DNA of 42,538 nucleotides, taken from Candidatus Sulfotelmatobacter sp. Lineage in GTDB: Bacteria; Acidobacteriota; Terriglobia; Terriglobales; Acidobacteriaceae. The notes beneath the pieces are model-generated. The model was not told the DNA's origin. It searched no databases and was given only the letters and a program-made list of their open reading frames with translations. Each line of letters starts with the position of its first letter. Positions within the stretch are counted from its first letter, which is position 1. Of this stretch, positions 9,509-42,344 are shown piece by piece. The stretch lies in NCBI GenBank assembly GCA_036521895.1, contig DATDGW010000560.1, positions 1 through 42,538 on the forward strand, in the 5' to 3' direction. The position numbers were made by a program, and so were the translations under genes.

Positions 9509-12205
9509 ATGGCTCTTTCCTCAGGCACCCGATTCGGTCCCTACGAAATCCTCTCTCCTGTTGGCGCTGGCGGGATGGGGGAGGTCTATCGGGCCAAGGA
9601 TACCCGCCTCGACCGCACTGTCGCCATTAAGGTTCTGCCCGCGCATCTTTCCTCTGACCCGGAATTGAAACAGCGCCTGGAGCGCGAGGCCAAGGCTATT
9701 TCTGCGCTGCAGCACGCGAATATCTGCACGCTTTACGATATCGGCACGCAGGACGGCACCACCTTCCTGGTCATGGAGTTTCTCGAAGGCCAGACTCTTG
9801 CGGAGCGTCTGGCAAAAGGTGCACTGCCCCTAGATCAGGTTCTGAAGATCGGTACGGAAATCGCGCAGGCCCTGGAGAAAGCGCATCAACAAGGAATTGT
9901 CCACCGTGATCTGAAACCGGCGAACGTCATGCTGACGAAAGCCGGCGCGAAGCTGATGGACTTCGGACTGGCGAAGCCCGAGATGTCGATTGCGTCGAAG
10001 GCCGCCGGGCCGTTTACTCCCTCGACGCCCACGATGAATCTTGCTTCGCTCACAGCGGCTACGTCGCCGCTCACGCAGAAGGGTTCCATCGTCGGAACCT
10101 TTCAATATATGGCCCCGGAAGTTCTGCAAGGAGCAGAAGCCGACGCGCGCAGCGATCTGTTCAGCTTCGGCTGCGTTCTCTACGAAATGGTGACCGGTCG
10201 CCGCGCATTCGAAGGCAAATCGCAACTCAGCGTATTCACTGCCATTTTGGAAAAAGATCCGGAGCCCATCAGGGCCAGCCAGCCTTTGACGCCGGCCATG
10301 CTTGAACGCGTGGTGGGCGCATGCCTCGCCAAAGATCCCGCCGATCGGTTCCAATCGGCGCACGACGTTGCGATGGATCTGCGCTGGCTCGCGGAAGCTG
10401 CGCCGGCGGAATCCGCAAGACCAGCTTCGCTGTTCAACAAGTCCTGGACTGCCGGATGGGCAGCCTTTCTGTTTGGATTCGTTGCCCTCGCCGGACTCGC
10501 CGGATACCGCTGGGCAAGATCCTCAGGGGATCGTGTATCGATCCACGCCGAAGTTCCCATGTCGGACAAGTTTTCCCTGGATGCCACCGGGGACGCAGGG
10601 GGCATGCCCGTGCTTTCCCCACAGGGCGACAAAATCGCCTTCGTCGCTCACTCGGGTGAAACCAAGCTGCTGTGGGTGCGCTCGCTCAGCACCGATTCGG
10701 CGCAAGCCCTCGAAAGCACCAACGGCGCTGTGCATCCTTTCTGGTCACCGGATGGCCGCTACATCGGGTTCTTTGCTGACGGCAAGTTGATGAAGATCGC
10801 CGCCACGGGGGGCCCGGTCGCGGTCTTGGCCGATGCTCCCAATTCACGCGGAGGAACTTGGGGCGTCAGCGACGTGATTGTGTTCAGCCCAGATTTTCAA
10901 GGTGCGCTGGCAAAAGTAGGCGCCCAGGGGGGTCCAGCAACCCCAGCGACGGTGATCGATAAAGCGAAGCACTCCACGCATCGCTGGCCCTGGTTCCTGC
11001 CCGACGGCAAACATTTTATTTTTCTGGCAACTAGTCACAGCGGAGGCGATCCCAAGCAGAACGGAATCTACTTCGGGTCAATCGACAGCTCGGAGACCCA
11101 CCTGGTGGTGGTGTCCGATGCGGCGGCAGAGTATGCATCTGGCTATCTCCTCTACCCGGCCAACACGGCTCTGGTGGCACAAACTTTCGATCCACAAAAG
11201 GGCAGATTGTCCGCGTCCCCCATTCCGCTGGTGAACAACCTGCGCAACGATGTGGGTGTGTGGCGCAGCATTTTCGCGGTCTCGCAGGACGGACTCTTGA
11301 TCTACCAGGCGGGCCGGGCGGCCGCGGCAAACAGCCGGATGGTGTGGTTCGACCGTTCGGGCAAGGCGCTAGCGGACTTCGATCCTCATGAGGCCTCGGT
11401 GATTGATGTGCGCCTCTCACCCGATAACAAGCGAGTTGCATTCGCAAGCGGACTCGGTATTTGGACGTTCGACCTTGAGCGCAAGACCAAGACGCGCATC
11501 ACCTTCGACCAACAGTTGGTGCGGGAACCCGCATGGTCTCGGGACGGCAAAGCGCTGGTATTCTCAGCGCAAGTCACCGCAGGCGGCGGCAACGTTGAAA
11601 TCCGCTCCAAAGCCGCCGATGGCAGTGGCAGCGAAAAGACATTGTTTGCCGAGCAGAACAACTTCCACTTCCCGGACTGGTCGCCCGACGGGAAATACCT
11701 AACCTACCTTTGGGGCGATGGCGAAAAGATGGTGTCGCTGTGGATACGCCCCGCCACCGGAGAGGGCAAGCCGGTTGCAGTCGTGGAACCGCCATCGCAG
11801 CAATCCAATATTTACTTTTATCGAATTTCGCCGGATGGCCACTGGGTCGCCTACGCGTCGGACGAATCCGGACAGCAGGAGCTTTACATCACGAGCTTCC
11901 CGGAGGGCAAAGGGAAATGGAAGATTTCATCGGGTGGCGGGTATTACGCAGCCTGGAGCGGAAATAGTAAAGAACTCTTCTATTCGGCTCTGACTGACGA
12001 CTTCTACGCTTGTCCCGTAACCCCAAAGGGAGCGGAGATCGAAGTCGGCACACCGCAGCATCTGTTCCACACCACGTTGCCCGCGGTCGGCGTATTGTTC
12101 GACGTGTCGTCCGACGGAAAGCGGTTGCTGGTGAACCACGCGGAGGAGGAGGCGCAAGCTCCGCTGCGGTTAGTCACGAACTGGCTCGCGGAGTTGAAGA
12201 AATGA
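9509..12205 (+). CDS. Hanks-type Ser/Thr protein kinase with one TM segment and a periplasmic TolB/DPP-IV-N-like double beta-propeller
   Basis: Kinase motifs are GAGGMGEVYRA, VAIK, HRDLKPANVM, DFGLAK and the APE-like YMAPE. The TM segment is WAAFLFGFVALAGLAGY. Repeated SPDG/SPQG..F blades follow, and the C-terminus is LRLVTNWLAELKK. The gene starts 32 nt after the activator stop on the same strand. Confidence 0.9.
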   Translation: MALSSGTRFGPYEILSPVGAGGMGEVYRAKDTRLDRTVAIKVLPAHLSSDPELKQRLEREAKAISALQHANICTLYDIGTQDGTTFLVMEFLEGQTLAERLAKGALPLDQVLKIGTEIAQALEKAHQQGIVHRDLKPANVMLTKAGAKLMDFGLAKPEMSIASKAAGPFTPSTPTMNLASLTAATSPLTQKGSIVGTFQYMAPEVLQGAEADARSDLFSFGCVLYEMVTGRRAFEGKSQLSVFTAILEKDPEPIRASQPLTPAMLERVVGACLAKDPADRFQSAHDVAMDLRWLAEAAPAESARPASLFNKSWTAGWAAFLFGFVALAGLAGYRWARSSGDRVSIHAEVPMSDKFSLDATGDAGGMPVLSPQGDKIAFVAHSGETKLLWVRSLSTDSAQALESTNGAVHPFWSPDGRYIGFFADGKLMKIAATGGPVAVLADAPNSRGGTWGVSDVIVFSPDFQGALAKVGAQGGPATPATVIDKAKHSTHRWPWFLPDGKHFIFLATSHSGGDPKQNGIYFGSIDSSETHLVVVSDAAAEYASGYLLYPANTALVAQTFDPQKGRLSASPIPLVNNLRNDVGVWRSIFAVSQDGLLIYQAGRAAAANSRMVWFDRSGKALADFDPHEASVIDVRLSPDNKRVAFASGLGIWTFDLERKTKTRITFDQQLVREPAWSRDGKALVFSAQVTAGGGNVEIRSKAADGSGSEKTLFAEQNNFHFPDWSPDGKYLTYLWGDGEKMVSLWIRPATGEGKPVAVVEPPSQQSNIYFYRISPDGHWVAYASDESGQQELYITSFPEGKGKWKISSGGGYYAAWSGNSKELFYSALTDDFYACPVTPKGAEIEVGTPQHLFHTTLPAVGVLFDVSSDGKRLLVNHAEEEAQAPLRLVTNWLAELKK

Positions 12206-32180: not shown

Positions 32181-33419
32181 TCACGCGGACAGAGTCGCGA
32201 GGGTCTCAGCCAGTATAAGCGTTCCACGAGCAATATCTTCCAGGGACGCGTACTCGTCGGGACGATGGCTGTACCCGTTGCGGCAGGGGATGAACAACAT
32301 GGCGACGGGGGCGATGCGCGCCATGAAAAGCGAATCGTGGTAGGCGCGACTGACCATGGGAATGAAGTTCATTTTGTGTTTGCGACACGATTGAGAAAGC
32401 GTCTCGATGATTTCTGGAGCGCAGTCCGCGGGGGCGTCGGCGTTGACCAACTCGCTGTTAACCGACACTTGCCGCTTTGCCGATATCGAACGACAAGTGG
32501 CTGCAATCGCACGCATGACGAGATCGCGGCGTTGCAGATCCGTGTCACGGATATCCACGGAAAGGCGAACCCGGCCCGGAATACTATTGACGGCGCCGGG
32601 AAACACATCGCAAATGCCGACGGTCGCGACCGTGTCGATGGCTCCACTAGTACGTGCAGCGTTTTCAATTGCCAGAATCAACTCAGCTGCAGCGCAGAGT
32701 GCGTCGTGGCGGTCGGGCATGAGAACACCACCGGCGTGTCCACCCGAACCTTCGATCAGAATGTGCAGGCTCGCAGGGGCTGCGATTTTCGCAACGATAC
32801 CGAGAGGAATCTGCTGCTGCTCCAGCAACGGACCTTGCTCGATGTGCAGCTCCAGGAACGCTTTGTAGTATCCAAGCGGCAGCTTTACCTGCTCAAGTTC
32901 ACCCGCAAACCCGGCCCGCTTGCGAACCTCGTCCACCGTCGTGCCGTCGTTGTCTTTTAGTCCTCGGGCTGCCTCCGGCGAAAGCGTGCCCGAGAGTAAC
33001 CGGCTTCCCAGACATCCGATTCCGAAGCGTGTCGGTTCTTCCGAGGTGAAAATTAGCAACTCTATCGAATGCCTGGGGCGAAACCCGCTCTGCTGCAAAG
33101 CCCGGACCGCTTCCAAACCTCCCATCACGCCCACAACGCCGTCGTATTTCCCGGCGTTTGGAATCGCATCGAGATGCGAGCCAGTTCCGACTGCCGAGGC
33201 AGACGGATCAGCGCCATTCCAGCGTGCGAAAGTATTTCCAACGGCATCCTGGCGCACGGCCAGGCCGGCATCCTCACACCGCGTTTTCATCCATGCACGT
33301 GCCTTTAGATCAGACGGGGTGAAAACCACTCGAGTCACAACCGGCGGCTTAGCCTCAGAGATCAAAGCCAGAGCTTCAATTTCGGACTGCAGCCGATTTC
33401 CATTGATCTTCAGGCTCAT
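32181..33419 (-). CDS. M20-family amidase of the allantoate/ureidoglycolate amidohydrolase (hydantoinase/carbamoylase) group
   Basis: Motifs are GSHLDAIPNAGKYDGVVGV, FTSEEPTRFG, ELHIEQGPLLE and GGHAG. ATG 33419 overlaps the upstream stop as ATGA. The longer track ORF (to 33557) would overlap the cupin gene. Confidence 0.85.
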   Translation of the reverse strand: MSLKINGNRLQSEIEALALISEAKPPVVTRVVFTPSDLKARAWMKTRCEDAGLAVRQDAVGNTFARWNGADPSASAVGTGSHLDAIPNAGKYDGVVGVMGGLEAVRALQQSGFRPRHSIELLIFTSEEPTRFGIGCLGSRLLSGTLSPEAARGLKDNDGTTVDEVRKRAGFAGELEQVKLPLGYYKAFLELHIEQGPLLEQQQIPLGIVAKIAAPASLHILIEGSGGHAGGVLMPDRHDALCAAAELILAIENAARTSGAIDTVATVGICDVFPGAVNSIPGRVRLSVDIRDTDLQRRDLVMRAIAATCRSISAKRQVSVNSELVNADAPADCAPEIIETLSQSCRKHKMNFIPMVSRAYHDSLFMARIAPVAMLFIPCRNGYSHRPDEYASLEDIARGTLILAETLATLSA

Positions 33420-34162
33420 CGATGCGAGCCCGCCAAGGGATGGCGGTTCCAATCTTTGTAAATGAGATATTTTGCGGGAACCTTGCCGATCGCTCCGAAC
33501 CACTGCGGGCACCACGGTCCCATCCAGATGAAGTCTCCCGTGCTCACGGGATACCAAGAGTCGCCGAGCCGGTAAATTCCGCCACCTTCGAGCATGAGGA
33601 GCCCGTGCTCCATCACATGCATTTCAACCATGCTCAGTGCGGCCCCGGGCTGATAGACCATGGTATTCACGGCGAAGTCGAAACTCACCTCATCTGGCAG
33701 CAGACACTTGACCTGCAGGTCGGGATCGTCGCCGAGCGGATGTGACGAGACCGCATCTTCGCTCGAGATAATCAAGTGAGGTGGCTCGGTCGAGTCGAGA
33801 TGGAGATAGCTCTTCTCGATGACCGCAAGACGGCTCACTTTTGTAGCCACTACTTCATGACGGAATCCTTCGGGAAAGTACGCGTAACCGTTCGGGCCAA
33901 GCGTCTTCGATTTGCGATCGCCTTCTACCTTCGCGCCGCCTGCGATCACGAAAATGAAGCGTTGCGCAGAAGTAGGCCCGAGTTCTCCGCCAACTTCGAA
34001 CTCAGCTGTGTACTGGGTAAACTTGGCGCCCACGGCCGGGCTGACGTGCACGATCGCGGCGCCGCCCTTCATTCCCGGCAGAGTTGTGCGCACAAAAGTA
34101 TCGGGAGTCAGCAGCAGATGGTTCGGTTTTTGCGAGCTTCGAGTCCGGCCAAGATTATGCAC
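33416..34162 (-). CDS. allE: (S)-ureidoglycine aminohydrolase (bicupin)
   Basis: The segment GRTRSSQKPNHLLLTPDTFVRTTLPGM resembles the YlbA/UGlyAH N-terminus. Two cupin halves are present (..GGAKVEGD.. and HVMEHGLLMLEGGGIYRLGD). GTG 34162 overlaps the allC stop by 8 nt. The 289-aa track ORF would overlap allC by 130 nt in another frame. Confidence 0.8.
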   Translation of the reverse strand: MHNLGRTRSSQKPNHLLLTPDTFVRTTLPGMKGGAAIVHVSPAVGAKFTQYTAEFEVGGELGPTSAQRFIFVIAGGAKVEGDRKSKTLGPNGYAYFPEGFRHEVVATKVSRLAVIEKSYLHLDSTEPPHLIISSEDAVSSHPLGDDPDLQVKCLLPDEVSFDFAVNTMVYQPGAALSMVEMHVMEHGLLMLEGGGIYRLGDSWYPVSTGDFIWMGPWCPQWFGAIGKVPAKYLIYKDWNRHPLAGSHR

Positions 34163-35417
34163 AGTTTGTCCTTTTGTAGAATTCGGGGGACGAAGCGAGC
34201 TGATCAAGAAGATGTAAGCCACATACAATCGCCTTCTCAACGTCGTCTTGTGTGACCGATTCAGCGGGATCGTGGCTGATTCCACCGGGGCTGCGGAGAA
34301 AAATCATCGCGCTCGGAACTTTCTCAGCCATGATCATGGCATCGTGACCAGCACCGCTCACCATCCGATGCCGCGTGCATCCCGCCTTGGCGATCGCTTG
34401 TTCGATCTCCCCAATGAAGAACGGGTCCAGGGAGACAGCGGGCTGGCTCAACAGGCGACTTTCGCGGACGGTTAGCCCGCGATGAGTAGCGATTCCTTGA
34501 GCTTGGCGAAGGAGTTCCCCTACCGCGCGAGTGCGAATCTCGTCAGAAAGGTGGCGAACGTCGAGTGTCAGGCGTGCTTGACCGGCGATGACGTTGGTGG
34601 CTCCGGGCTTTGCGTCGATCTTTCCAACCGTTGCCACCAGACCGGGGACTTCTAGGGCACAACGTTCTACCACGCCGATCCACTGTGCCGCGCCGGCGAT
34701 CGCATCGCACCGAAAATGCATCGGCGTTGTGCCGGCATGGTTGGCATGGCCCAGGAATGTCAACTCTAACCGGGTCTGTCCGGCGATGCCTTCGACTGCT
34801 GCGAGGGGAAGATTCAATCTTTCGAGAACGGGTCCCTGCTCGATATGAAACTCGAGATAACCGATAACGTCGCGTTGCAACTCCGCCCGAGAAATCTCAG
34901 CGGGATCGAGTCCGAACTCTTGGATTGCTTTTCGCATCGAGATGCTTCGCGCATCCTGAAGGTCGAGAAGTTCTTCATCCAACCGGCCCACCAGTGCACG
35001 GCTGCCGATAAACGGAGTTCCGAAACGCACGCCTTCCTCCTCCGAAAAGCCGACGACCTCGATCGCGAAGGGAAGTCGCCGTCCCCGAAGTTCTTCCAGC
35101 AGGGCGACCGCGAGCACAACGCCGAGGATGCCGTCATAAGCACCGGCGTTAGGAACCGTGTCGAGGTGCGAGCCAATCAGGAGACGCAGGGCGTTCGGCT
35201 GTGTAGCCGGATAGACTCCCCGCAAATTGCCGGCAGCATCGATGCGCACTTCGGAGCCAAGCGGTTCCATCCATCGCGCAATTTCCTGGTGGCAGTCGTG
35301 CATGGGGGGCGAGAGAAAGGTTCGGCGCGTGCTGCCCGAGTCCTCGGAAAACGATGCAAGCTTCAGACACCGTTGGATGACTTCCGCCGCTCGCGTTATG
35401 ATCTCGGTGGTCTGCAC
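34155..35417 (-). CDS. allC: allantoate amidohydrolase-type M20 amidase
   Basis: Motifs are GSHLDTVPNAGAYDGILGV, FSEEEGVRFG, EFHIEQGPVLE, GHANHAGTTPM, SGAGHDA and GGISHDPAE. The start codon is GTG. Confidence 0.85.
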   Translation of the reverse strand: MQTTEIITRAAEVIQRCLKLASFSEDSGSTRRTFLSPPMHDCHQEIARWMEPLGSEVRIDAAGNLRGVYPATQPNALRLLIGSHLDTVPNAGAYDGILGVVLAVALLEELRGRRLPFAIEVVGFSEEEGVRFGTPFIGSRALVGRLDEELLDLQDARSISMRKAIQEFGLDPAEISRAELQRDVIGYLEFHIEQGPVLERLNLPLAAVEGIAGQTRLELTFLGHANHAGTTPMHFRCDAIAGAAQWIGVVERCALEVPGLVATVGKIDAKPGATNVIAGQARLTLDVRHLSDEIRTRAVGELLRQAQGIATHRGLTVRESRLLSQPAVSLDPFFIGEIEQAIAKAGCTRHRMVSGAGHDAMIMAEKVPSAMIFLRSPGGISHDPAESVTQDDVEKAIVCGLHLLDQLASSPEFYKRTNCA

Positions 35418-35460: not shown

Positions 35461-36279
35461 TCAGGACTCCCGTATCACCTTCGCCGCCACCCAGCCGAGA
35501 AGCACGAGCGCAACCAGAACCTCCCAGCTGTAAGTGTTCCCATAGGTTGCGACCGGAAAGTGATTGCTGATCATGATAAAGACAACGGGAACCGCCATGA
35601 AAGTATTGTGTTTGGATCGCAGTTTGGCTTGAACACTGAGAGCCAACTCGAATGTCTCTCCGGCCGCTGCCGCCGCGATCATCTTGCGCTGGGAGGGGAG
35701 GATCCGGAGCCAAACATTGGCCGACATGATCGTTCCGAAGACCGCACCGAGGTGAATATAGGCCGCGCGTCCGCTGAATACATGCGTCAGTCCCCAGGCG
35801 AACACGGCAATCATGAGCAGAGAGAACACAGCAAACCCGCTCTCGGACCGGCCCAGGGGCGACCGCAGCGCGAGATCGTAGATGATCCAACCTCCCGTGA
35901 GTACCGCAAGCCCGATCGCGATCGCACGGGTTTGCGAAATGTCTGCAACGTCATGGTCAACGAGTCCACTGCTGGAGTAGTAAACCAGACCCAACAGCAC
36001 CATTCCGGTGAGCCAGGTTATGAGCGCTTCCCAGCGGAACCAATGAACCTGCTCGGGACCGACCTTGAGTGATTTCTGCCGGTCGACAGTGTAGAAGCCG
36101 CCGCTATGGACCATCCAGATCGACGGAGTCGGGCCTTCGGTCGCAGCCTTCTTGGCGAGCCGGTTGAACTGTCCGTCCAGCCACGTGAAATAGTAGGTTT
36201 GGCCGACCCACATGATTGCGGCAAAGACATGAGTCCAGCGCACCAACAGGTTCAGCCATTCCCGAATTGACGAGGTCAC
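35461..36279 (-). CDS. puuD: PuuD-like membrane urate oxidase, N-terminal (Urate_ox_N) domain only
   Basis: GGAG lies 8 nt before GTG 36279. The sequence WTHVFAAIMWVGQTYYFTWLD..WMVHSGGFY, followed by several TM helices, matches my recollection of the PuuD membrane domain. The gene sits between uraH and allC. The product contains no cysteine, so no CxxCH is possible. Confidence 0.7.
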   Translation of the reverse strand: MTSSIREWLNLLVRWTHVFAAIMWVGQTYYFTWLDGQFNRLAKKAATEGPTPSIWMVHSGGFYTVDRQKSLKVGPEQVHWFRWEALITWLTGMVLLGLVYYSSSGLVDHDVADISQTRAIAIGLAVLTGGWIIYDLALRSPLGRSESGFAVFSLLMIAVFAWGLTHVFSGRAAYIHLGAVFGTIMSANVWLRILPSQRKMIAAAAAGETFELALSVQAKLRSKHNTFMAVPVVFIMISNHFPVATYGNTYSWEVLVALVLLGWVAAKVIRES

Positions 36280-36305: not shown

Positions 36306-36650
36306 TCAGCTGCCGCGGTAGGTTGAATATCCGTTCGGGCTCAGAAGGAGCGGAATGTGGAAGTGCGATTCGCCCTGTCTTGCATGGAACATGACTTCCA
36401 CTGCCGGATACAGAGCCTCGACTTTCTGTCGCGCGAAATAACTGCCGGTGTCAAAGATCAAACGATAGACTCCGGCGGAGAGATCCTCGGCTTGGGGAAG
36501 CAACTGAGGGCATCGGCCGTCGTCGTCGGTGCGAGCTGAGGTCAGTAGTCGCCAGTCTCCGGCGCTATTCTGCTTCTCCAGTCGCACCGACACGGCTGCG
36601 GCAGGCTTGCCGTGCGTGAGGTCAAGAATGTGTGTCGAAATACGCTTCAT
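36306..36650 (-). CDS. uraH: 5-hydroxyisourate hydrolase (transthyretin-like)
   Basis: The product reads MKRISTHILDLTHGKPAAAV.. and ends in the diagnostic YSTYRGS. ATG 36650 overlaps the upstream stop as ATGA. The track start at 36662 is 4 codons longer. Confidence 0.92.
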   Translation of the reverse strand: MKRISTHILDLTHGKPAAAVSVRLEKQNSAGDWRLLTSARTDDDGRCPQLLPQAEDLSAGVYRLIFDTGSYFARQKVEALYPAVEVMFHARQGESHFHIPLLLSPNGYSTYRGS

Positions 36651-38044
36651 GGTTGGAGCCATTTCCTTAGCCGAATTTCTGTAATCTGCCGTTGCTGCTC
36701 GGCCGCTTCGTGAAGTTCAGTTTCGGCGTCGTTGCGGAGGCGGCGTTGAAGCATCTCCAGAATTTCCGACGCTGACTTGCCGGTGGCGCAAACAATAAAA
36801 GTGCGATTGAAACGCCGCTCGTATTCGCGATTGGCATTCGCTAGAGCAGTTCTCACCGCGGGGTCGGCATCCGTAACTTGCCTTTGCTCTTGGGCCGACC
36901 AGACCACCGATGGGGCGGACGGAGACTGGGGCGCGCGTGACTCGCCGATCCGCGGATGACTGTTGAAAGCTTCCCTCCAATGGGATGGGCCGAGGTTGCG
37001 CCACGTTTCGTTTGACGCAATCAGGAGCGCACCTAGGTCCGCAATAGGCCTTCGGGCGACGACACCCTGCCCCCAAGCCCTCGAACCGCAGCAGGGAAGA
37101 ATCGCGTTAACGGCATCGTCGGTCTTGAGGAGGTTCCATCGTGTCAGAATCTCCGATGTTTGGTTACGATTGGCTGATGGTTCAGAATTCAGGCGCTTCA
37201 GGAATTCGACCACCAGATTGCCTGCTACGGCCGCGCGATACCTCGCCGTCGAGCGAATGTCGTCGATCGGGCGGATCTCTCGAGTAGCTGCCGCTTTCGC
37301 CGCGCGCAACAAATCAGAATCAATCGACCGTCCTCTCACGACTCGTTCCGTTTCCCGTAGGCGAAGCGGAACCGGCGCGACACTCCCCAACGCGATTCGC
37401 ACATCGTCGACTAAGCCTTTCCCCGGCCGGCCGAGAGCGGCGATGCACACTTTGGAAATTGCTTGAGCGTTGCGCGCCCCGACTTTGCGGGCATGGCTAA
37501 CATATCCCGAGAACTGCCGAGGCAGGCACACGGCCCGAATCAACTCGTCCGGCGCCAGCAGAGTCTTCTTATATCCCGTGTGGAACGAAACATAAGGCAC
37601 GCGCCGCTCCCCTCGCACTGACACGAGAATCACTTCAGCTTCGTAAACGAGCAGTGCGGGCAGGGAATCGGCCGCCGGAGATGCGTTCACAATATTGCCG
37701 CCAATCGTCCCCCGATTCTGGTTTGCAATTCCACCTGTCCAGCGGGCGGCCGTCGTCAGAAGAGGGAACTCTTGTCCTACAACTTCGTGCCTGCGCACAT
37801 CCGTATAGGTGCATCCGGCCCCGATGCGAATCTCGCTCCTGTCGACTTCAATATGCCGCAATTCTGTGAGGTTCCAAATGCTGACCAGCTTTCTCTGCGG
37901 CAACGTCCCGGCCGCATATTGCACCATCACGTCGGTGCCACCTGCGATCGGGAGCCACATGCCAGGTTCTCTTGCTAGCAGCAAAACGATAGCCGGCAGA
38001 TTGCCGGGTGCGACCATTTCGTAGTCCGAGGGGTCCGATCTCAT
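36647..38044 (-). CDS. xanthine dehydrogenase FAD-binding subunit fused to OHCU decarboxylase
   Basis: The N-terminal ~290 aa carry the CoxM/XdhB-type FAD_binding_5 and CO_deh_flav_C domains (IAGGTDVMV, GGNIVNASPAADS, DDIRSTARYR). The C-terminal ~165 aa (about 36647..37180) form an OHCU decarboxylase (CCGSRAW, FNSHPRIGES, FIVCATGKSASEIL). Confidence 0.85.
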   Translation of the reverse strand: MRSDPSDYEMVAPGNLPAIVLLLAREPGMWLPIAGGTDVMVQYAAGTLPQRKLVSIWNLTELRHIEVDRSEIRIGAGCTYTDVRRHEVVGQEFPLLTTAARWTGGIANQNRGTIGGNIVNASPAADSLPALLVYEAEVILVSVRGERRVPYVSFHTGYKKTLLAPDELIRAVCLPRQFSGYVSHARKVGARNAQAISKVCIAALGRPGKGLVDDVRIALGSVAPVPLRLRETERVVRGRSIDSDLLRAAKAAATREIRPIDDIRSTARYRAAVAGNLVVEFLKRLNSEPSANRNQTSEILTRWNLLKTDDAVNAILPCCGSRAWGQGVVARRPIADLGALLIASNETWRNLGPSHWREAFNSHPRIGESRAPQSPSAPSVVWSAQEQRQVTDADPAVRTALANANREYERRFNRTFIVCATGKSASEILEMLQRRLRNDAETELHEAAEQQRQITEIRLRKWLQP

Positions 38045-38538
38045 GCGGTCAACCTGCGCCGCGCTGCCTCCGCCACGGCCTCGAGAATCTGGCTATAGCC
38101 TGTGCACCGGCAGAGATTGCCGGAAAGGCCTTCCCGGATCTCTTCGATGGTTGGCTCAGGTTTTTGATTGAGCAAGTGGCAGGCGGCGACAATCATCCCG
38201 GGAGTGCAGATGCCGCATTGCGCACCGCCGCATTCCAGAAAAGCCTCCTGCAGGACGTGCAGCTTTTCTCCGTCTGCCAATCCTTCAATCGTGACGATGC
38301 CGGTGCCTGCTGCCTGAAGAGCGGGTATCAGGCAGCTACTTACGAGCGTGCCATCCATCAACACCGAGCAGGAACCACACTCGCCTTCTCCACAACCTTC
38401 TTTCGCTCCGGTCAGTCCAAGTTCCATTCGCAGCACGTCGAGCAAGCGCGCCATCGGATACGTGCGCACGGTCTTCGGCTCACCGTTAACCGTGAATGAA
38501 ATCTCGACCTTGATGCTGCTCCCGCCAGAATCGGTCAT
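38041..38538 (-). CDS. xanthine dehydrogenase [2Fe-2S] small subunit
   Basis: The plant-type ferredoxin site is GCGEGECGSCSV. The second cluster site is QCGICTPG..NLCRCTGY. ATGA overlaps occur at both ends. Confidence 0.92.
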   Translation of the reverse strand: MTDSGGSSIKVEISFTVNGEPKTVRTYPMARLLDVLRMELGLTGAKEGCGEGECGSCSVLMDGTLVSSCLIPALQAAGTGIVTIEGLADGEKLHVLQEAFLECGGAQCGICTPGMIVAACHLLNQKPEPTIEEIREGLSGNLCRCTGYSQILEAVAEAARRRLTA

Positions 38539-40799
38539 CGGGCCCCGCTAGTAAGGGTTTCATCGTTTCGGCGCGATGGTTTGAGAAGTGCGTCCATGAT
38601 TTCTTCGGGAAGCAGGGGAATGGAATCGAAACGAGTCCCGAGAGCATCTTCCACAGCGTTCACGATTGCCGGAGCCGGGCCGTCCATCGGAAGTTCGCCA
38701 ATGCCCTTTGCTCCGTAAGCTCCGTGGACGTTTCCCAACTCTTCAAAGAACACGCGAATGGGTGGCAGATCGCTCGACGTGGGCATGATGTAGTTGGTCA
38801 TCTGACCGTTCTGCATACGCCCATTCTGCCAAACCACCTTTTCATAAAGGCTGAATCCGATTCCCTGGGCAATACCGCCGATGATTTGCCCCCGCGCAAG
38901 GAGCGGGTGCAGAACCTTACCAACCTCTTGGAGCGCGACGAAGTCATCCACCGATACGCTAAATGTCGTGAGATCAACAGAGACTTCCGCAATGTAAACG
39001 GCCCAGGCAAAAGCAGCGTAGGCTTCTCCTCGATACTTTTCGTCGTCCCAGAAAATGCCGCTCGGCGCTTCATAGCGTGACCAGCAACGGAATTGGCCAT
39101 GCTTGGCGACATGTTGCCGGCAGGCCGCGCGAAACTCATCGGCCGAATATCCTTGGCGCAGCACCTTGGAGGAAATCAACGTCTGTGCAATTCCAAGAGC
39201 GGCAGACTTTACCAGGCTTCCCACCACCATCACAGTGCGGGACGCCACGGTGGGGCCGCTGTTGGGCACTTCGAACGTATCCGGTTGGGCTACGCTCACG
39301 TTCTCGTACGGCAGACCGAGGGCTTCCGCCGCGATCTGGCTCAGGACGGTTTTTGTCCCTTGGCCAAACTCGGTGCTCGAAACTAGCACCTTCACACTGC
39401 CGTCAGCGCAACCTTCCACCCCGACCACTGACCTCAGGTAACGTTCACCCGATCCAGTAAATCCGGCTCCGTGCAGAAACGCTGCAATTCCCATGCCCTT
39501 CCTGGATGTGCCGACCTGATTCCGGGACGCGAAACTCTGTCTCTTCGAGTGATACTCAGAAATCTCCAATGCTTGGTCAATCAATTTTCCCAGATCAATC
39601 GGCTCCCTCACCACCTGCTCTGTCGTGGTGGTTTGTCCCGGTTGCAGAAAATTGCGGCGACGGATCTCGACCGGAGAAAGACCTACTGACTGCGCGATCC
39701 GGTCCATGTGCCGCTCCATGGCAAACAGACTTTGCGGCGCGCCAAAGCCGCGGAATGCTCCATGAGGCGGAGCATTGGTGGCGACGGCCTTGGCGCGGAT
39801 GCGAACACTCGGCCAATAATAAGGTCCTCCAGCGTGAATTGCTCCGCGGGAGAGGACCACCGAGGATAGTGTGGCATATGCGCCGCCATCAATGGTGAAG
39901 TCAATCTCTCCACCGAGAATCTTCCCGTCGCGGCTCACGGCGGTCCGATGGCGAGTGCGCGAAGGATGCCTCTTGGTAGTCGCCGCCATGTCCTCGAGGC
40001 GGTCATAAATAATCTTTACGGGTCTTCCGGCTTTGATCGCCAGCAGAGCAGCGTGCGCAGCGATCATCGAGGGATATTCCTCCTTCCCTCCGAAAGCGCC
40101 TCCAGTCTCCATCTGCACCACGCGAACTTGTTCTGCCGGCAAGTTGCAGAGCGCCATGAGCGCCTTATGAATGTAATAAGGACATTGCAGCGAGCCCCAC
40201 ACCGTGATCCCTTGGGCTGGGTAAAAGGCGGCAATCATCCCATTATTTTCGATGTAGAGCTGCTCCTGAGCGCCGGTCGTATACTCGCCTTCCACGATGG
40301 AGTCGGCTTTTTCCCAAACGCTGTCGAGATCGCCTTTCTCGATGACGTACGTTTTGAAAACGTTGTTCTCGCCCCAAATGATCTCGGTGTGGCGCTCACT
40401 CTCGTCAATCGTGAAGATGCCGGGCAAAAGATCGTATTCGAAGGATATCGCTTGAACCGCCTTCGGGAGGCGATGGCGATCGGGATGAGCCAAGAGCAGA
40501 ATCGGCTCTTCAGGATGATTCACGAAGTCAGTGGCCAGACAGGGTTGATCGTCGCCGATCAGCGAGATGCAATTCTTCCCCGGAATATCTTTGGCCGACA
40601 CGACGACGAATTGGTCCCAGGCAATGCCGGGGCCGAATGTGATCTTTTTGATCCGGCCGCGAGGAATCTGGCTGCGAACGGTTGCTCCGAAGAGCATGTT
40701 GGGCAGAGCCATGTCGTCGACGTATTGCGACCGTCCGGTCACCTTGTCGCGACCTTCCTTGCGCGGAACTGACTTGCCGACGATGGGATCGGTATTCAT
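38535..40799 (-). CDS. xanthine dehydrogenase molybdopterin-binding large subunit
   Basis: ATG 40799 gives MNTDPIVGKSVPRKEGRDKVTGRSQYVDD. GGAFGGKE and other aldehyde-oxidase/XDH a/b-hammerhead and Mo-binding segments are present. The track maximum (TTG 40886) adds 29 non-conserved residues. Confidence 0.9.
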   Translation of the reverse strand: MNTDPIVGKSVPRKEGRDKVTGRSQYVDDMALPNMLFGATVRSQIPRGRIKKITFGPGIAWDQFVVVSAKDIPGKNCISLIGDDQPCLATDFVNHPEEPILLLAHPDRHRLPKAVQAISFEYDLLPGIFTIDESERHTEIIWGENNVFKTYVIEKGDLDSVWEKADSIVEGEYTTGAQEQLYIENNGMIAAFYPAQGITVWGSLQCPYYIHKALMALCNLPAEQVRVVQMETGGAFGGKEEYPSMIAAHAALLAIKAGRPVKIIYDRLEDMAATTKRHPSRTRHRTAVSRDGKILGGEIDFTIDGGAYATLSSVVLSRGAIHAGGPYYWPSVRIRAKAVATNAPPHGAFRGFGAPQSLFAMERHMDRIAQSVGLSPVEIRRRNFLQPGQTTTTEQVVREPIDLGKLIDQALEISEYHSKRQSFASRNQVGTSRKGMGIAAFLHGAGFTGSGERYLRSVVGVEGCADGSVKVLVSSTEFGQGTKTVLSQIAAEALGLPYENVSVAQPDTFEVPNSGPTVASRTVMVVGSLVKSAALGIAQTLISSKVLRQGYSADEFRAACRQHVAKHGQFRCWSRYEAPSGIFWDDEKYRGEAYAAFAWAVYIAEVSVDLTTFSVSVDDFVALQEVGKVLHPLLARGQIIGGIAQGIGFSLYEKVVWQNGRMQNGQMTNYIMPTSSDLPPIRVFFEELGNVHGAYGAKGIGELPMDGPAPAIVNAVEDALGTRFDSIPLLPEEIMDALLKPSRRNDETLTSGAR

Positions 40800-40923
40800 G
40801 CGTCTGTGGCTCGAAAATATTCCCAACTCCCCGGCCCAACCGCGCGGATTCGGGGATGGGATAGTGTATGACAGACCGGTGAACAATGGCAGGGAAGTCT
40901 GCGCGAAGACAGATAGAAAATGG

Positions 40924-42297
40924 TTATGGCACCGATCGACGGCTTTGATTTGCGATGTACTCCCGCCCAGCGGGACTGCTGGGGAAAGCTCCTTCCGAGA
41001 AGACAGGGTTGCCTCGCAGATAGGTGGCTTTCACTACCCCGCGGAGGGTTTCTCCCAGATATGGAGAAACGGGATGGTGGTAATGCAATCTGTCTTCGGT
41101 TAGAGTGAATTCGCGATCGGGATCGAAGATAACGAAATCCGCGTCATAGCCAGCGGCAATACGACCCTTGCGGCTGTCGCAGCCTGCAAGTCGAGCCGGC
41201 CCGGCTGCCATCCACTGCACCAGATCGAGCAACGTGAATCCTCGTTTGCTGGCCTCAGTCCACATAAGAGGCAGCGCAACGGACAGGCTCGCAATTCCGC
41301 CCCAGGCGGTGCGGAAATTGCCCTCGCAGAGACGCTTCATGACTGGAGGACAGGGCGAGTGGTCGGTGACTACAAAGTCGATCGTTCCATCCTTGAGGCC
41401 GCCCCATAACTCCTCACGATTCTCGCGGCTGCGGATTGGCGGCGCGCACTTGCTTAGCGTGGCTCCATTCGCGATTGTTTCAGCGGACAGGTGCAGGTAG
41501 TGTGGACAGGTCTCTACACTTACTGGCAGTCCCTCCGCTCGTGCGGCGTGCAAGTCGGGAAGTGCATGGCTGGAAGAGAGATGGACGATGTGCAGGTGAA
41601 AGCCGTATTCACGGCACAATGACAGCATCAGGCGGATGGCAGCCAGTTCCGCTTCGTCCGGACGCGACTGGAGATACGTGGAGTAATGGCTCCAATCTGC
41701 ATCGGCCAGAGCGTCGGTGGCGCGATCGATCGGACCTGCGAGTTCCGCGTGAACCAGCAGTGGAAGCCCGGTCCGGGCAACATGCGGGAGAGCCAATCGC
41801 AGTTCCTGCTCGGTAACCATGGTGAAGCCATCGATTCCCGGGTCGATCAGGAAACACTTGCAGCCGGGGACTCCCGCAGCCGCGAGTGCTGCGATGTGCT
41901 CTTGATTGTCGTGGACCACGCCGCCCCAGGCCGCCCAATCAACACGGCATTTGCCGCGCGCTGCCTCACGCTTGGCCTTCAGCGCGGCGACCGTCGTTGT
42001 CGCGGGAAGGCTATTCAAAGGCATGTCGACAAGCAGCGTGTAGCCGCCCGCCGCTGCGGCGCGGGTCGCGGTTTCGAAGCCCTCCCATTCCGAGCGGCCA
42101 GGATCGTTGATGTGCACATGGGAATCGACGAGTCCAGGAAGGATGGCCGAGCCGCCAAAGTCGTGGATTTTGTAATGATCAGGTACTTGATCGGGTGCGA
42201 CGATGGATTGGATCTGCTCCTGCTCCACAAGGATGGCCGCAGGGCGGATGCCCGTGTGAGTCACCACGCGCTGAGCGACGAAGGCCTGCAAATCCAA
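40924..42297 (-). CDS. allB: allantoinase (cyclic amidohydrolase)
   Basis: Motifs are PGLVDSHVHINDPGRSEWEGFETATRAAAAGGYT, the carboxylated-Lys region GCKCF, and DHSP. AAGGAG (42311..42306) followed by 8 nt and TTG 42297 gives MDLQAFVAQRVV. The ORF maximum is TTG 42336. Confidence 0.88.
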   Translation of the reverse strand: MDLQAFVAQRVVTHTGIRPAAILVEQEQIQSIVAPDQVPDHYKIHDFGGSAILPGLVDSHVHINDPGRSEWEGFETATRAAAAGGYTLLVDMPLNSLPATTTVAALKAKREAARGKCRVDWAAWGGVVHDNQEHIAALAAAGVPGCKCFLIDPGIDGFTMVTEQELRLALPHVARTGLPLLVHAELAGPIDRATDALADADWSHYSTYLQSRPDEAELAAIRLMLSLCREYGFHLHIVHLSSSHALPDLHAARAEGLPVSVETCPHYLHLSAETIANGATLSKCAPPIRSRENREELWGGLKDGTIDFVVTDHSPCPPVMKRLCEGNFRTAWGGIASLSVALPLMWTEASKRGFTLLDLVQWMAAGPARLAGCDSRKGRIAAGYDADFVIFDPDREFTLTEDRLHYHHPVSPYLGETLRGVVKATYLRGNPVFSEGAFPSSPAGREYIANQSRRSVP

Positions 42298-42344
42298 AAT
42301 TTCAGCTCCTTGCGGTTGTCGCAAGACCACGATCAAATCAACAT

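Follow-up and report, generated by a model that had tools for sequence, protein, structure and literature searches.

A xanthine dehydrogenase-family FAD subunit joined to a predicted OHCU decarboxylase in a purine operon of Terriglobia

We analysed a stretch of 42,538 nucleotides from the soil acidobacterium Candidatus Sulfotelmatobacter sp. (GenBank assembly GCA_036521895.1, contig DATDGW010000560.1, positions 1 to 42,538), which as a whole is called the window in the following. The subject is a single gene that joins the flavin adenine dinucleotide (FAD) binding subunit of a xanthine dehydrogenase (XDH)-family enzyme to a domain of 2-oxo-4-hydroxy-4-carboxy-5-ureidoimidazoline (OHCU) decarboxylase, UraD, with which the route from urate to allantoin ends. 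On the minus strand, from 38044 to 36647, it forms one continuous open reading frame (ORF) of 465 codons (product P0001). A plus-strand reading of 36647..38044 was rejected, since its translation is closed and yields stops only. Neither a stop nor a frame change was found along the whole ORF, the linker region at 37133..37192 included. At 38044 the ATG shares bases with the stop codon of the preceding gene for the iron-sulphur (FeS) subunit, and the N-terminus is conserved among relatives. The gene is composed as follows, with Pfam scores given next to their gathering thresholds (GA):

36647..38044, minus strand: whole fused gene FAD::UraD, 465 aa; ATG at 38044, stop at 36647-36649
37517..38023, minus strand: FAD_binding_5 domain, residues 8-176; 140.8 bits, GA 27
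37193..37489, minus strand: CO_deh_flav_C, C-terminal domain of the flavoprotein subunit, residues 186-284; 74.5 bits, GA 25.5
37133..37192, minus strand: interdomain linker, residues 285-304 (about 20 residues), variable in sequence and length
36665..37132, minus strand: OHCU decarboxylase (UraD) domain, OHCU_decarbox PF09349, residues 305-460; 142.9 bits, GA 24

An initial annotation of this DNA had described a single 465-aa ORF made of a flavoprotein subunit and an OHCU decarboxylase, with no mention of the (minus) strand. The unbroken ORF with its three Pfam domains bears this description out. The junction, which had been placed near 37185, corresponds to residue ~287 and lies within the linker. 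Likewise, the assignment of the first part to the CoxM/XdhB type agrees with the two flavoprotein domains being above GA, and the decarboxylase domain is complete as had been claimed: the PF09349 match covers profile positions 2-155 of 155, i.e. a full-length UraD domain, and the catalytic His/Glu/Arg are kept (see below).

For the N-terminal 285 residues the NCBIfam models indicated a resemblance to flavoprotein subunits of the XdhB/PucC/CoxM type. The FAD motifs AGGTD (residues 34-38) and GGN..ASPAxD (115-126) were invariant in 76/76 fused proteins. An AlphaFold2 model of the fused protein had a mean pLDDT of 77 and was disordered at residues 290-294 (pLDDT below 50). In a Foldseek search with this model, its N-terminal half matched 1ffv_C, 1n61_C, 1zxi_C, 4zoh_B and 1t3q_C with TMt values of 0.72-0.75 and E-values of 1e-14 to 1e-17; the fold matches are the medium subunits of carbon monoxide dehydrogenase (CODH), quinoline oxidoreductase, glyceraldehyde oxidoreductase and XDH. 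As the query was the whole model and only flavoprotein subunits were returned, the UraD half was outranked. Judged by sequence and model, the N-terminal half is recognisable as the FAD-binding medium subunit of a three-subunit molybdenum hydroxylase of the XdhB/PucC/CoxM type.

Compared with solved OHCU decarboxylases, the UraD part matched the Klebsiella structures 5uou/3o7h at an E-value of 2e-28, and those from Arabidopsis (2q37) and zebrafish (2o70) matched as well. The motifs HP(R/Q)IG, S-x-x-EQ, F(I/L)(I/V)xA and I-T-x-x-R-L are common to the solved proteins and the fused domain. With the NCBIfam model UraD_2 (TIGR03180) the tail of the fused gene scored 151.2 bits, above the equivalog-domain cut-off of 139.4. 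As the catalytic set of OHCU decarboxylase we take zebrafish H67, E87 and R161, matched by numbering; the roles of these three residues were reportedly described by Cendron et al. in 2007. Counting along 2o70, H67-P68 corresponds to H363-P364 in the HPRIG motif and R161 to R458 in the I-T-x-x-R-L motif. E87 corresponds to E386 once the pairwise alignment is corrected by 2 residues, for which the S-x-x-E-Q common to 3o7h and 2q37 served as guide. The resulting site residues, aligned to 2o70, are encoded at:

36956-36958, minus strand: H363
36887-36889, minus strand: E386
36671-36673, minus strand: R458

Among the 76 fused proteins H363 was conserved in 76/76, E386 in 75/76 and R458 in 76/76. 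A C-terminal domain devoid of the catalytic His/Glu/Arg, which the initial annotation had regarded as speaking against its own reading, is thus not what the locus encodes; all three are present and essentially invariant. A second match to PF09349 was found neither elsewhere in the window's genome, which is 85% complete, nor in five fused-type genomes of 96-100% completeness. As no PF09349 match lies outside the fused gene in any of the six genomes, the fused domain would be the only source of UraD activity in these organisms. The C-terminal ~160 residues presumably act as a catalytically competent OHCU decarboxylase that delivers (S)-allantoin. Solved UraD structures bind purine-like ligands, and this is the sole point towards a different role, in which the domain would no longer be a decarboxylase and would serve as a ligand-binding or regulatory module, e.g. 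tuning XDH in response to allantoin or purines. Such a module is very improbable given the near invariance of the catalytic residues and of the whole UraD motif set, the TIGR03180 score above cut-off and the absence of any other UraD from six genomes in which the pathway is otherwise retained, UraH and allantoinase included.

The window's genome is a metagenome-assembled genome (MAG) of 842 contigs, and we therefore considered whether an indel from sequencing or assembly could have joined two separate genes, the MAG being fragmented. To this end we scanned related loci with one genome per species, which provided 208 stretches; counts given out of 80 loci refer to the best 80 of these 208. All 80 were from Terriglobia MAGs (Acidobacteriaceae, Ca. 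Sulfotelmatobacter, Ca. Acidoferrum and similar) of several independent projects. The order of the window's nine-gene purine operon was kept in 80/80 loci, a few short or frame-disturbed contigs lacking one or two genes. In 72 of the 80 loci the fused ORF was unbroken and had 458-476 aa; among the remaining eight, five were truncated or frameshifted and three had a TGA at the junction. Frame problems were seen in the loci L055, L070, L073, L076, L069, L079 and L081. From 5.8 billion protein clusters we obtained metagenomic relatives with 74-87% identity, and the three domains were present in 120/120 among the matches listed. When the UraD part alone was used as query among longer proteins, 1144 matches were obtained, of which the best 120 all had the FAD-UraD arrangement, four of them being fragments without one FAD-side domain.

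The linker was the least conserved part of the protein, with a column identity of 0.50 vs 0.76-0.87 in the domains. Its length differed among relatives by whole codons with the frame always kept, as expected for what would be a translated flexible tether. An indel artefact would be favoured by the fragmented and incomplete state of the window's genome, by the frame problems in a few related loci and by the existence of relatives in which the two genes overlap by 4 nt (see below), being one indel short of an apparent fusion. These points are outweighed by the unbroken fusion in genomes of 72 species, which are independent and come from several projects, by the three-domain architecture of all listed metagenomic relatives and by a linker that varied in sequence and whole-codon length, yet remained in frame throughout. 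Moreover, the uraD start codon with its ATGA overlap is not retained in the window. Because the fusion is unbroken in 72/80 species genomes and the linker changes by whole codons, an artefact is ruled out for this clade; from the sequences it appears effectively refuted and is extremely improbable for the window. One of the related loci (L015, DATHQJ010000085.1) is labelled 'Candidatus Binatus sp.' and has the same nine-gene operon and fusion, being 75% identical to the window. A mis-binned contig of acidobacterial origin is the probable explanation; transfer is less likely.

The distribution of fused and separate genes was obtained from 401 species genomes of the window's family and from a phylum-wide sample of 301 genomes. 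Each sample included one unpublished genome (G322 and G024, respectively), and no specific claim is based on either. In the family sample the unbroken fusion occurred in 8 genomes, the window's among them, and about 30 genomes had xdhB directly followed by a separate uraD. In the 301-genome sample the full-length fusions found were all from the window's family. For 40 loci of the family sample we examined the junction. The split xdhB and uraD lie in different frames, and in about 20 of the 30 split loci they share a 4-nt stop-start overlap of the type ATGA/GTGA/TTGA (18 scored by script, L084 and L086 by eye). Three more split loci had an 8-base overlap. Two genomes of the window's own genus, G158 and G528, are of the split type.

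Within this genus the locus is patchy: G158 and G528 belong to a different gene-tree clade, and G179, G587, G637 and G681 are without a close homologue, such that the genus holds fused-type, split-type and locus-less genomes. Due to this patchiness a horizontal movement of the purine operon among Terriglobia is suggested, with operon transfer being likely. In three loci, L069 (= G619), L079 and L081, a TGA is located exactly at the junction at locus position ~8880, followed by ~35 garbled codons before homology resumes. Such junctions may be due to frameshifts in pairs or to indel errors of long reads, or the alleles may be decaying or in transition. The three loci were first scored as fused and were later recoded or dropped.

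A tree (76 rows, IQ-TREE quick, LG+G4) calculated from the XdhB and UraD parts in concatenation placed the window inside a clade of 32 rows, all of them fused, that had an SH-aLRT support of 99, the other fused rows being scattered among the split ones. Parsimony on this tree, with the three in-frame-stop loci recoded, required 11 changes between the fused and the split state. A single fused clade was rejected: the constrained tree was 559 log-likelihood units worse (approximately unbiased test, p = 2.5e-56), with a constraint group that was chosen after the tree had been seen. A second tree (FastTree) of all 109 usable rows provided 13 maximal fused groups, which comprised 61 (the window's), 4, 4 and 2 members as well as nine singletons. 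The nine singleton branches could be indel errors of MAGs, which would reduce the number of fusions; the four multi-genome groups are not easily explained this way. On the gene tree, gain and loss of the fusion are separable only with a rooted species tree.

We also searched 1.84 billion representatives for distant fusions. Among the best 150 matches the fusion was seen only in P0162, P0165 and P0167 and some fragments, all of which were 46-59% identical to the query. The other long matches were the FeS-FAD fusions P0195 and P0231 as well as P0268 (464 aa), in which FAD_binding_5 and CO_deh_flav_C are followed by a His_Phos_1 histidine-phosphatase domain, i.e. a different C-terminal fusion. 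P0268 suggests that the C-terminus of the XDH-family FAD subunit accepts various add-ons.

The operon that contains the fused gene comprises, in the order of its transcription, the following further genes:

40924..42336, minus strand: allantoinase AllB, first gene of the operon; TIGR03178 535.8 bits, cut-off 357.85
38535..40886, minus strand: molybdopterin large subunit; its end overlaps the FeS gene
38041..38538, minus strand: 2Fe-2S small subunit of the molybdenum hydroxylase; Fer2 and Fer2_2
36306..36662, minus strand: 5-hydroxyisourate (HIU) hydrolase, UraH; TIGR02962 140 bits, cut-off 87; start overlaps the end of the fused gene
35461..36279, minus strand: PuuD-like membrane protein, presumed urate oxidase; Urate_ox_N, 294 bits; 272 aa
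34155..35417, minus strand: allantoate amidohydrolase; Pfam/NCBIfam
33416..34285, minus strand: (S)-ureidoglycine aminohydrolase; Pfam/NCBIfam
32181..33557, minus strand: second M20 amidase; Pfam/NCBIfam

As the initial annotation had noted, UraH and the PuuD-like oxidase follow directly downstream of the fused gene; the FeS and molybdenum (Mo) subunits are found directly upstream. An adenosine deaminase and a NUP-family protein adjoin the operon on the opposite strand. Because of the operon enzymes together with these two neighbours, the setting would amount to a complete purine-to-glyoxylate route. No Uricase match (PF01014) was found in the window's 85% complete genome. The PuuD-like protein consists of the membrane domain only (Urate_ox_N positions 3-263 of 295) without a cytochrome c domain, and its length is constant wherever it was found in related loci (L004-L083, at about 9775-10590). 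According to PMC4562309, full-length DUF989 proteins of purine clusters always carry the cytochrome.

Several results weigh against calling the partner enzyme a xanthine dehydrogenase. The FAD part remained below the NCBIfam equivalog cut-offs (XdhB_XDHase 195 vs 310 bits; PucC 104 vs 306), and so did the Mo subunit (pucD 434 vs 784 bits; XdhA 393 vs 780). In a sequence ranking of the Mo subunit against the Protein Data Bank (PDB), XDH was no closer than 4-hydroxybenzoyl-CoA reductase or aldehyde oxidoreductase, which were both marginally ahead of it. The substrate call, which is based on genomic context and on four pocket residues whose positions we presume, is therefore the weakest link of the assignment. 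A motif scan of the Mo subunit identified GGAFGGK-E269, R347, FRGF at 378-381 (R379, F381) and E731 in GELP. We take these to match the purine pocket positions E802, R880, R912/F914 and E1261 of the bovine enzyme; mapped by motif spacing, R347 lies 32 residues ahead of R379, which is the same spacing as from bovine R880 to R912. Given the pocket-residue spacing and the operon context, the molybdoenzyme very probably converts xanthine or hypoxanthine to urate. Were it to act on another N-heterocycle or on an aldehyde, as the sub-threshold scores of every XDH equivalog model and the PDB ranking would permit, the fusion would not link urate production to allantoin. We regard this as improbable, considering that the presumed equivalents of bovine E802, R880, F914 and E1261 are present and that the enzyme is encoded in a purine operon, with allantoinase on one side and UraH on the other, beside adenosine deaminase and the NUP-family protein.

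In E. coli XdhABC, B. subtilis PucCDE and CoxLMS-type hydroxylases, the Mo, FeS and FAD genes are separate and lie side by side as in the window, and the FAD subunit has the same two domains and the CODH/XDH medium-subunit fold. The subunit described here differs in its additional C-terminal UraD, and its scores below the XdhB and PucC cut-offs mark it as a divergent lineage. Stand-alone UraD/HpxQ proteins (3o7h/5uou from Klebsiella, 2q37 from Arabidopsis, 2o70 from zebrafish) have the full-length domain, the motifs and the catalytic positions in common with the fused domain. They are, however, free proteins of ~170 aa, whereas here UraD is tethered through the ~20-residue linker to the C-terminus of an XDH subunit. 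Covalent linkage at the termini of the FAD module is tolerated also in R. capsulatus XdhA and eukaryotic xanthine oxidoreductase, which are FeS-FAD or FeS-FAD-Mo fused chains. These join subunits of one enzyme, while in the present case a different enzyme is joined.

UraD is known from other fusions. PucL of B. subtilis is a UraD-uricase fusion, and NCBIfam provides models for allantoicase::UraD (PRK13797) and UraD::M20 amidase (PRK13799). The fused gene fails both of these models (147 vs 814 and 32 vs 1087 bits, respectively) and matches with its UraD part only. The allantoin synthase of plants and diatoms is a UraH-UraD fusion, according to PMC13751858. In the known cases the partner likewise stems from the purine-degradation pathway, and several of them likewise join non-consecutive steps. 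They differ in the partner, which in the present gene is a redox subunit of the enzyme upstream of urate and not a uricase, UraH, allantoicase or amidase. The initial annotation had been aware of no described fusion to an XDH subunit; in agreement with this, our literature search, which included PMC13751858 (a 2026 review of uricolysis) and PMC4562309 (on PuuD), revealed no account of an XDH-subunit::UraD fusion. What is new is thus the XDH-family redox subunit as a partner of UraD, while the habit of UraD to fuse within the urate pathway was already known.

The explanation that we favour for the origin of the fused gene is the merger of translationally coupled neighbours. Ancestral xdhB and uraD would have been adjacent and coupled, in different frames and with a 4-nt overlap of the ATGA type. 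The gain or loss of one base just ahead of the xdhB stop would then have joined the two frames. The product would combine an ordinary XDH flavin subunit with an ordinary UraD, each domain retaining its usual job. Such a chain would fix the ratio of UraD to XDH at 1:1 and place UraD on the XDH complex, i.e. provide co-production and co-location. A direct passage of substrate between the fused modules would not be expected, as urate oxidation by the PuuD-like protein and the UraH step intervene. From the sequences it is probable that the fusion arose by this merger with ordinary domain functions and no direct channelling; with the same good probability, as part of this explanation as a whole, the gene encodes a genuine two-function polypeptide of XDH-family FAD subunit and UraD. 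The lack of direct channelling is argued because the fused activities are three steps apart and the intervening enzymes are separate in 80/80 loci, one of them being a polytopic membrane protein. In addition, a fusion alone is weak evidence for channelling because UraD is also fused to other non-consecutive enzymes of the pathway. Two further considerations weigh against the merger with ordinary functions as set out here. The polypeptide could be cleaved post-translationally at the linker, and physical association may have been selected for, as the recurrent independent fusion and its stable retention in the 61-genome clade could indicate; this would speak for a metabolon.

A metabolon had been proposed in the initial annotation: UraH and the membrane-bound PuuD-like oxidase would dock onto XDH, such that the unstable HIU and OHCU are passed on from urate to allantoin without release or racemisation. 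That a fusion of pathway partners recurs independently and persists across a clade of 61 genomes lends this proposal mild support of the Rosetta-stone type, and the tight coupling of the operon with its overlapping gene ends and the fused UraD being the only copy are in line with it. On the other hand, the activities joined are not consecutive, UraH and the oxidase were never within the fusion in 80 loci, and close kin work with unfused genes that overlap by 4 nt. Fused and split states moreover interchange readily on the gene tree, and the joining of UraD to other non-adjacent enzymes (PRK13797, PRK13799) points to opportunistic fusion in purine operons. The claim is therefore unsupported by our data and we consider a metabolon of this kind unlikely. 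It is quite unlikely as well that the fusion reveals one part of a larger XDH-centred assembly in Terriglobia, in which the tethered UraD would recruit UraH and the complex would dock on the cytochrome-less PuuD-like oxidase. If this were true, urate, HIU and OHCU would never be released, the electrons of both oxidations would perhaps be handled at one site, and the repeated independent fusions would reflect selection for association.

For the merger of coupled neighbours, the clade constitutes a natural experiment. It is well sampled and unusually labile, with close relatives that either overlap by 4 nt or are fused and with many transitions between the two. It is well suited to the question of whether fusing the genes of pathway enzymes is adaptive or close to neutral. 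In Acidobacteria of peat and soil the architecture is abundant. In public annotation (JGI, NCBI) the fused protein is named 'OHCU decarboxylase' only, a name that hides the XDH subunit and with which the XDH would seem to be without a flavoprotein. An apt name would be bifunctional XDH-family FAD subunit / OHCU decarboxylase.

Two gene starts in the operon deserve mention. The longest ORFs of the ureidoglycine aminohydrolase (33416-34285) and the allantoate amidohydrolase (34155-35417) overlap by 131 nt. Because the profile match of the aminohydrolase begins only at residue 45, its true start probably lies further downstream. The longest ORF of the Mo subunit has a TTG start 34 codons ahead of the first homology; the internal Met at residue 30 (MNTDPIVGK...) is more likely its start.

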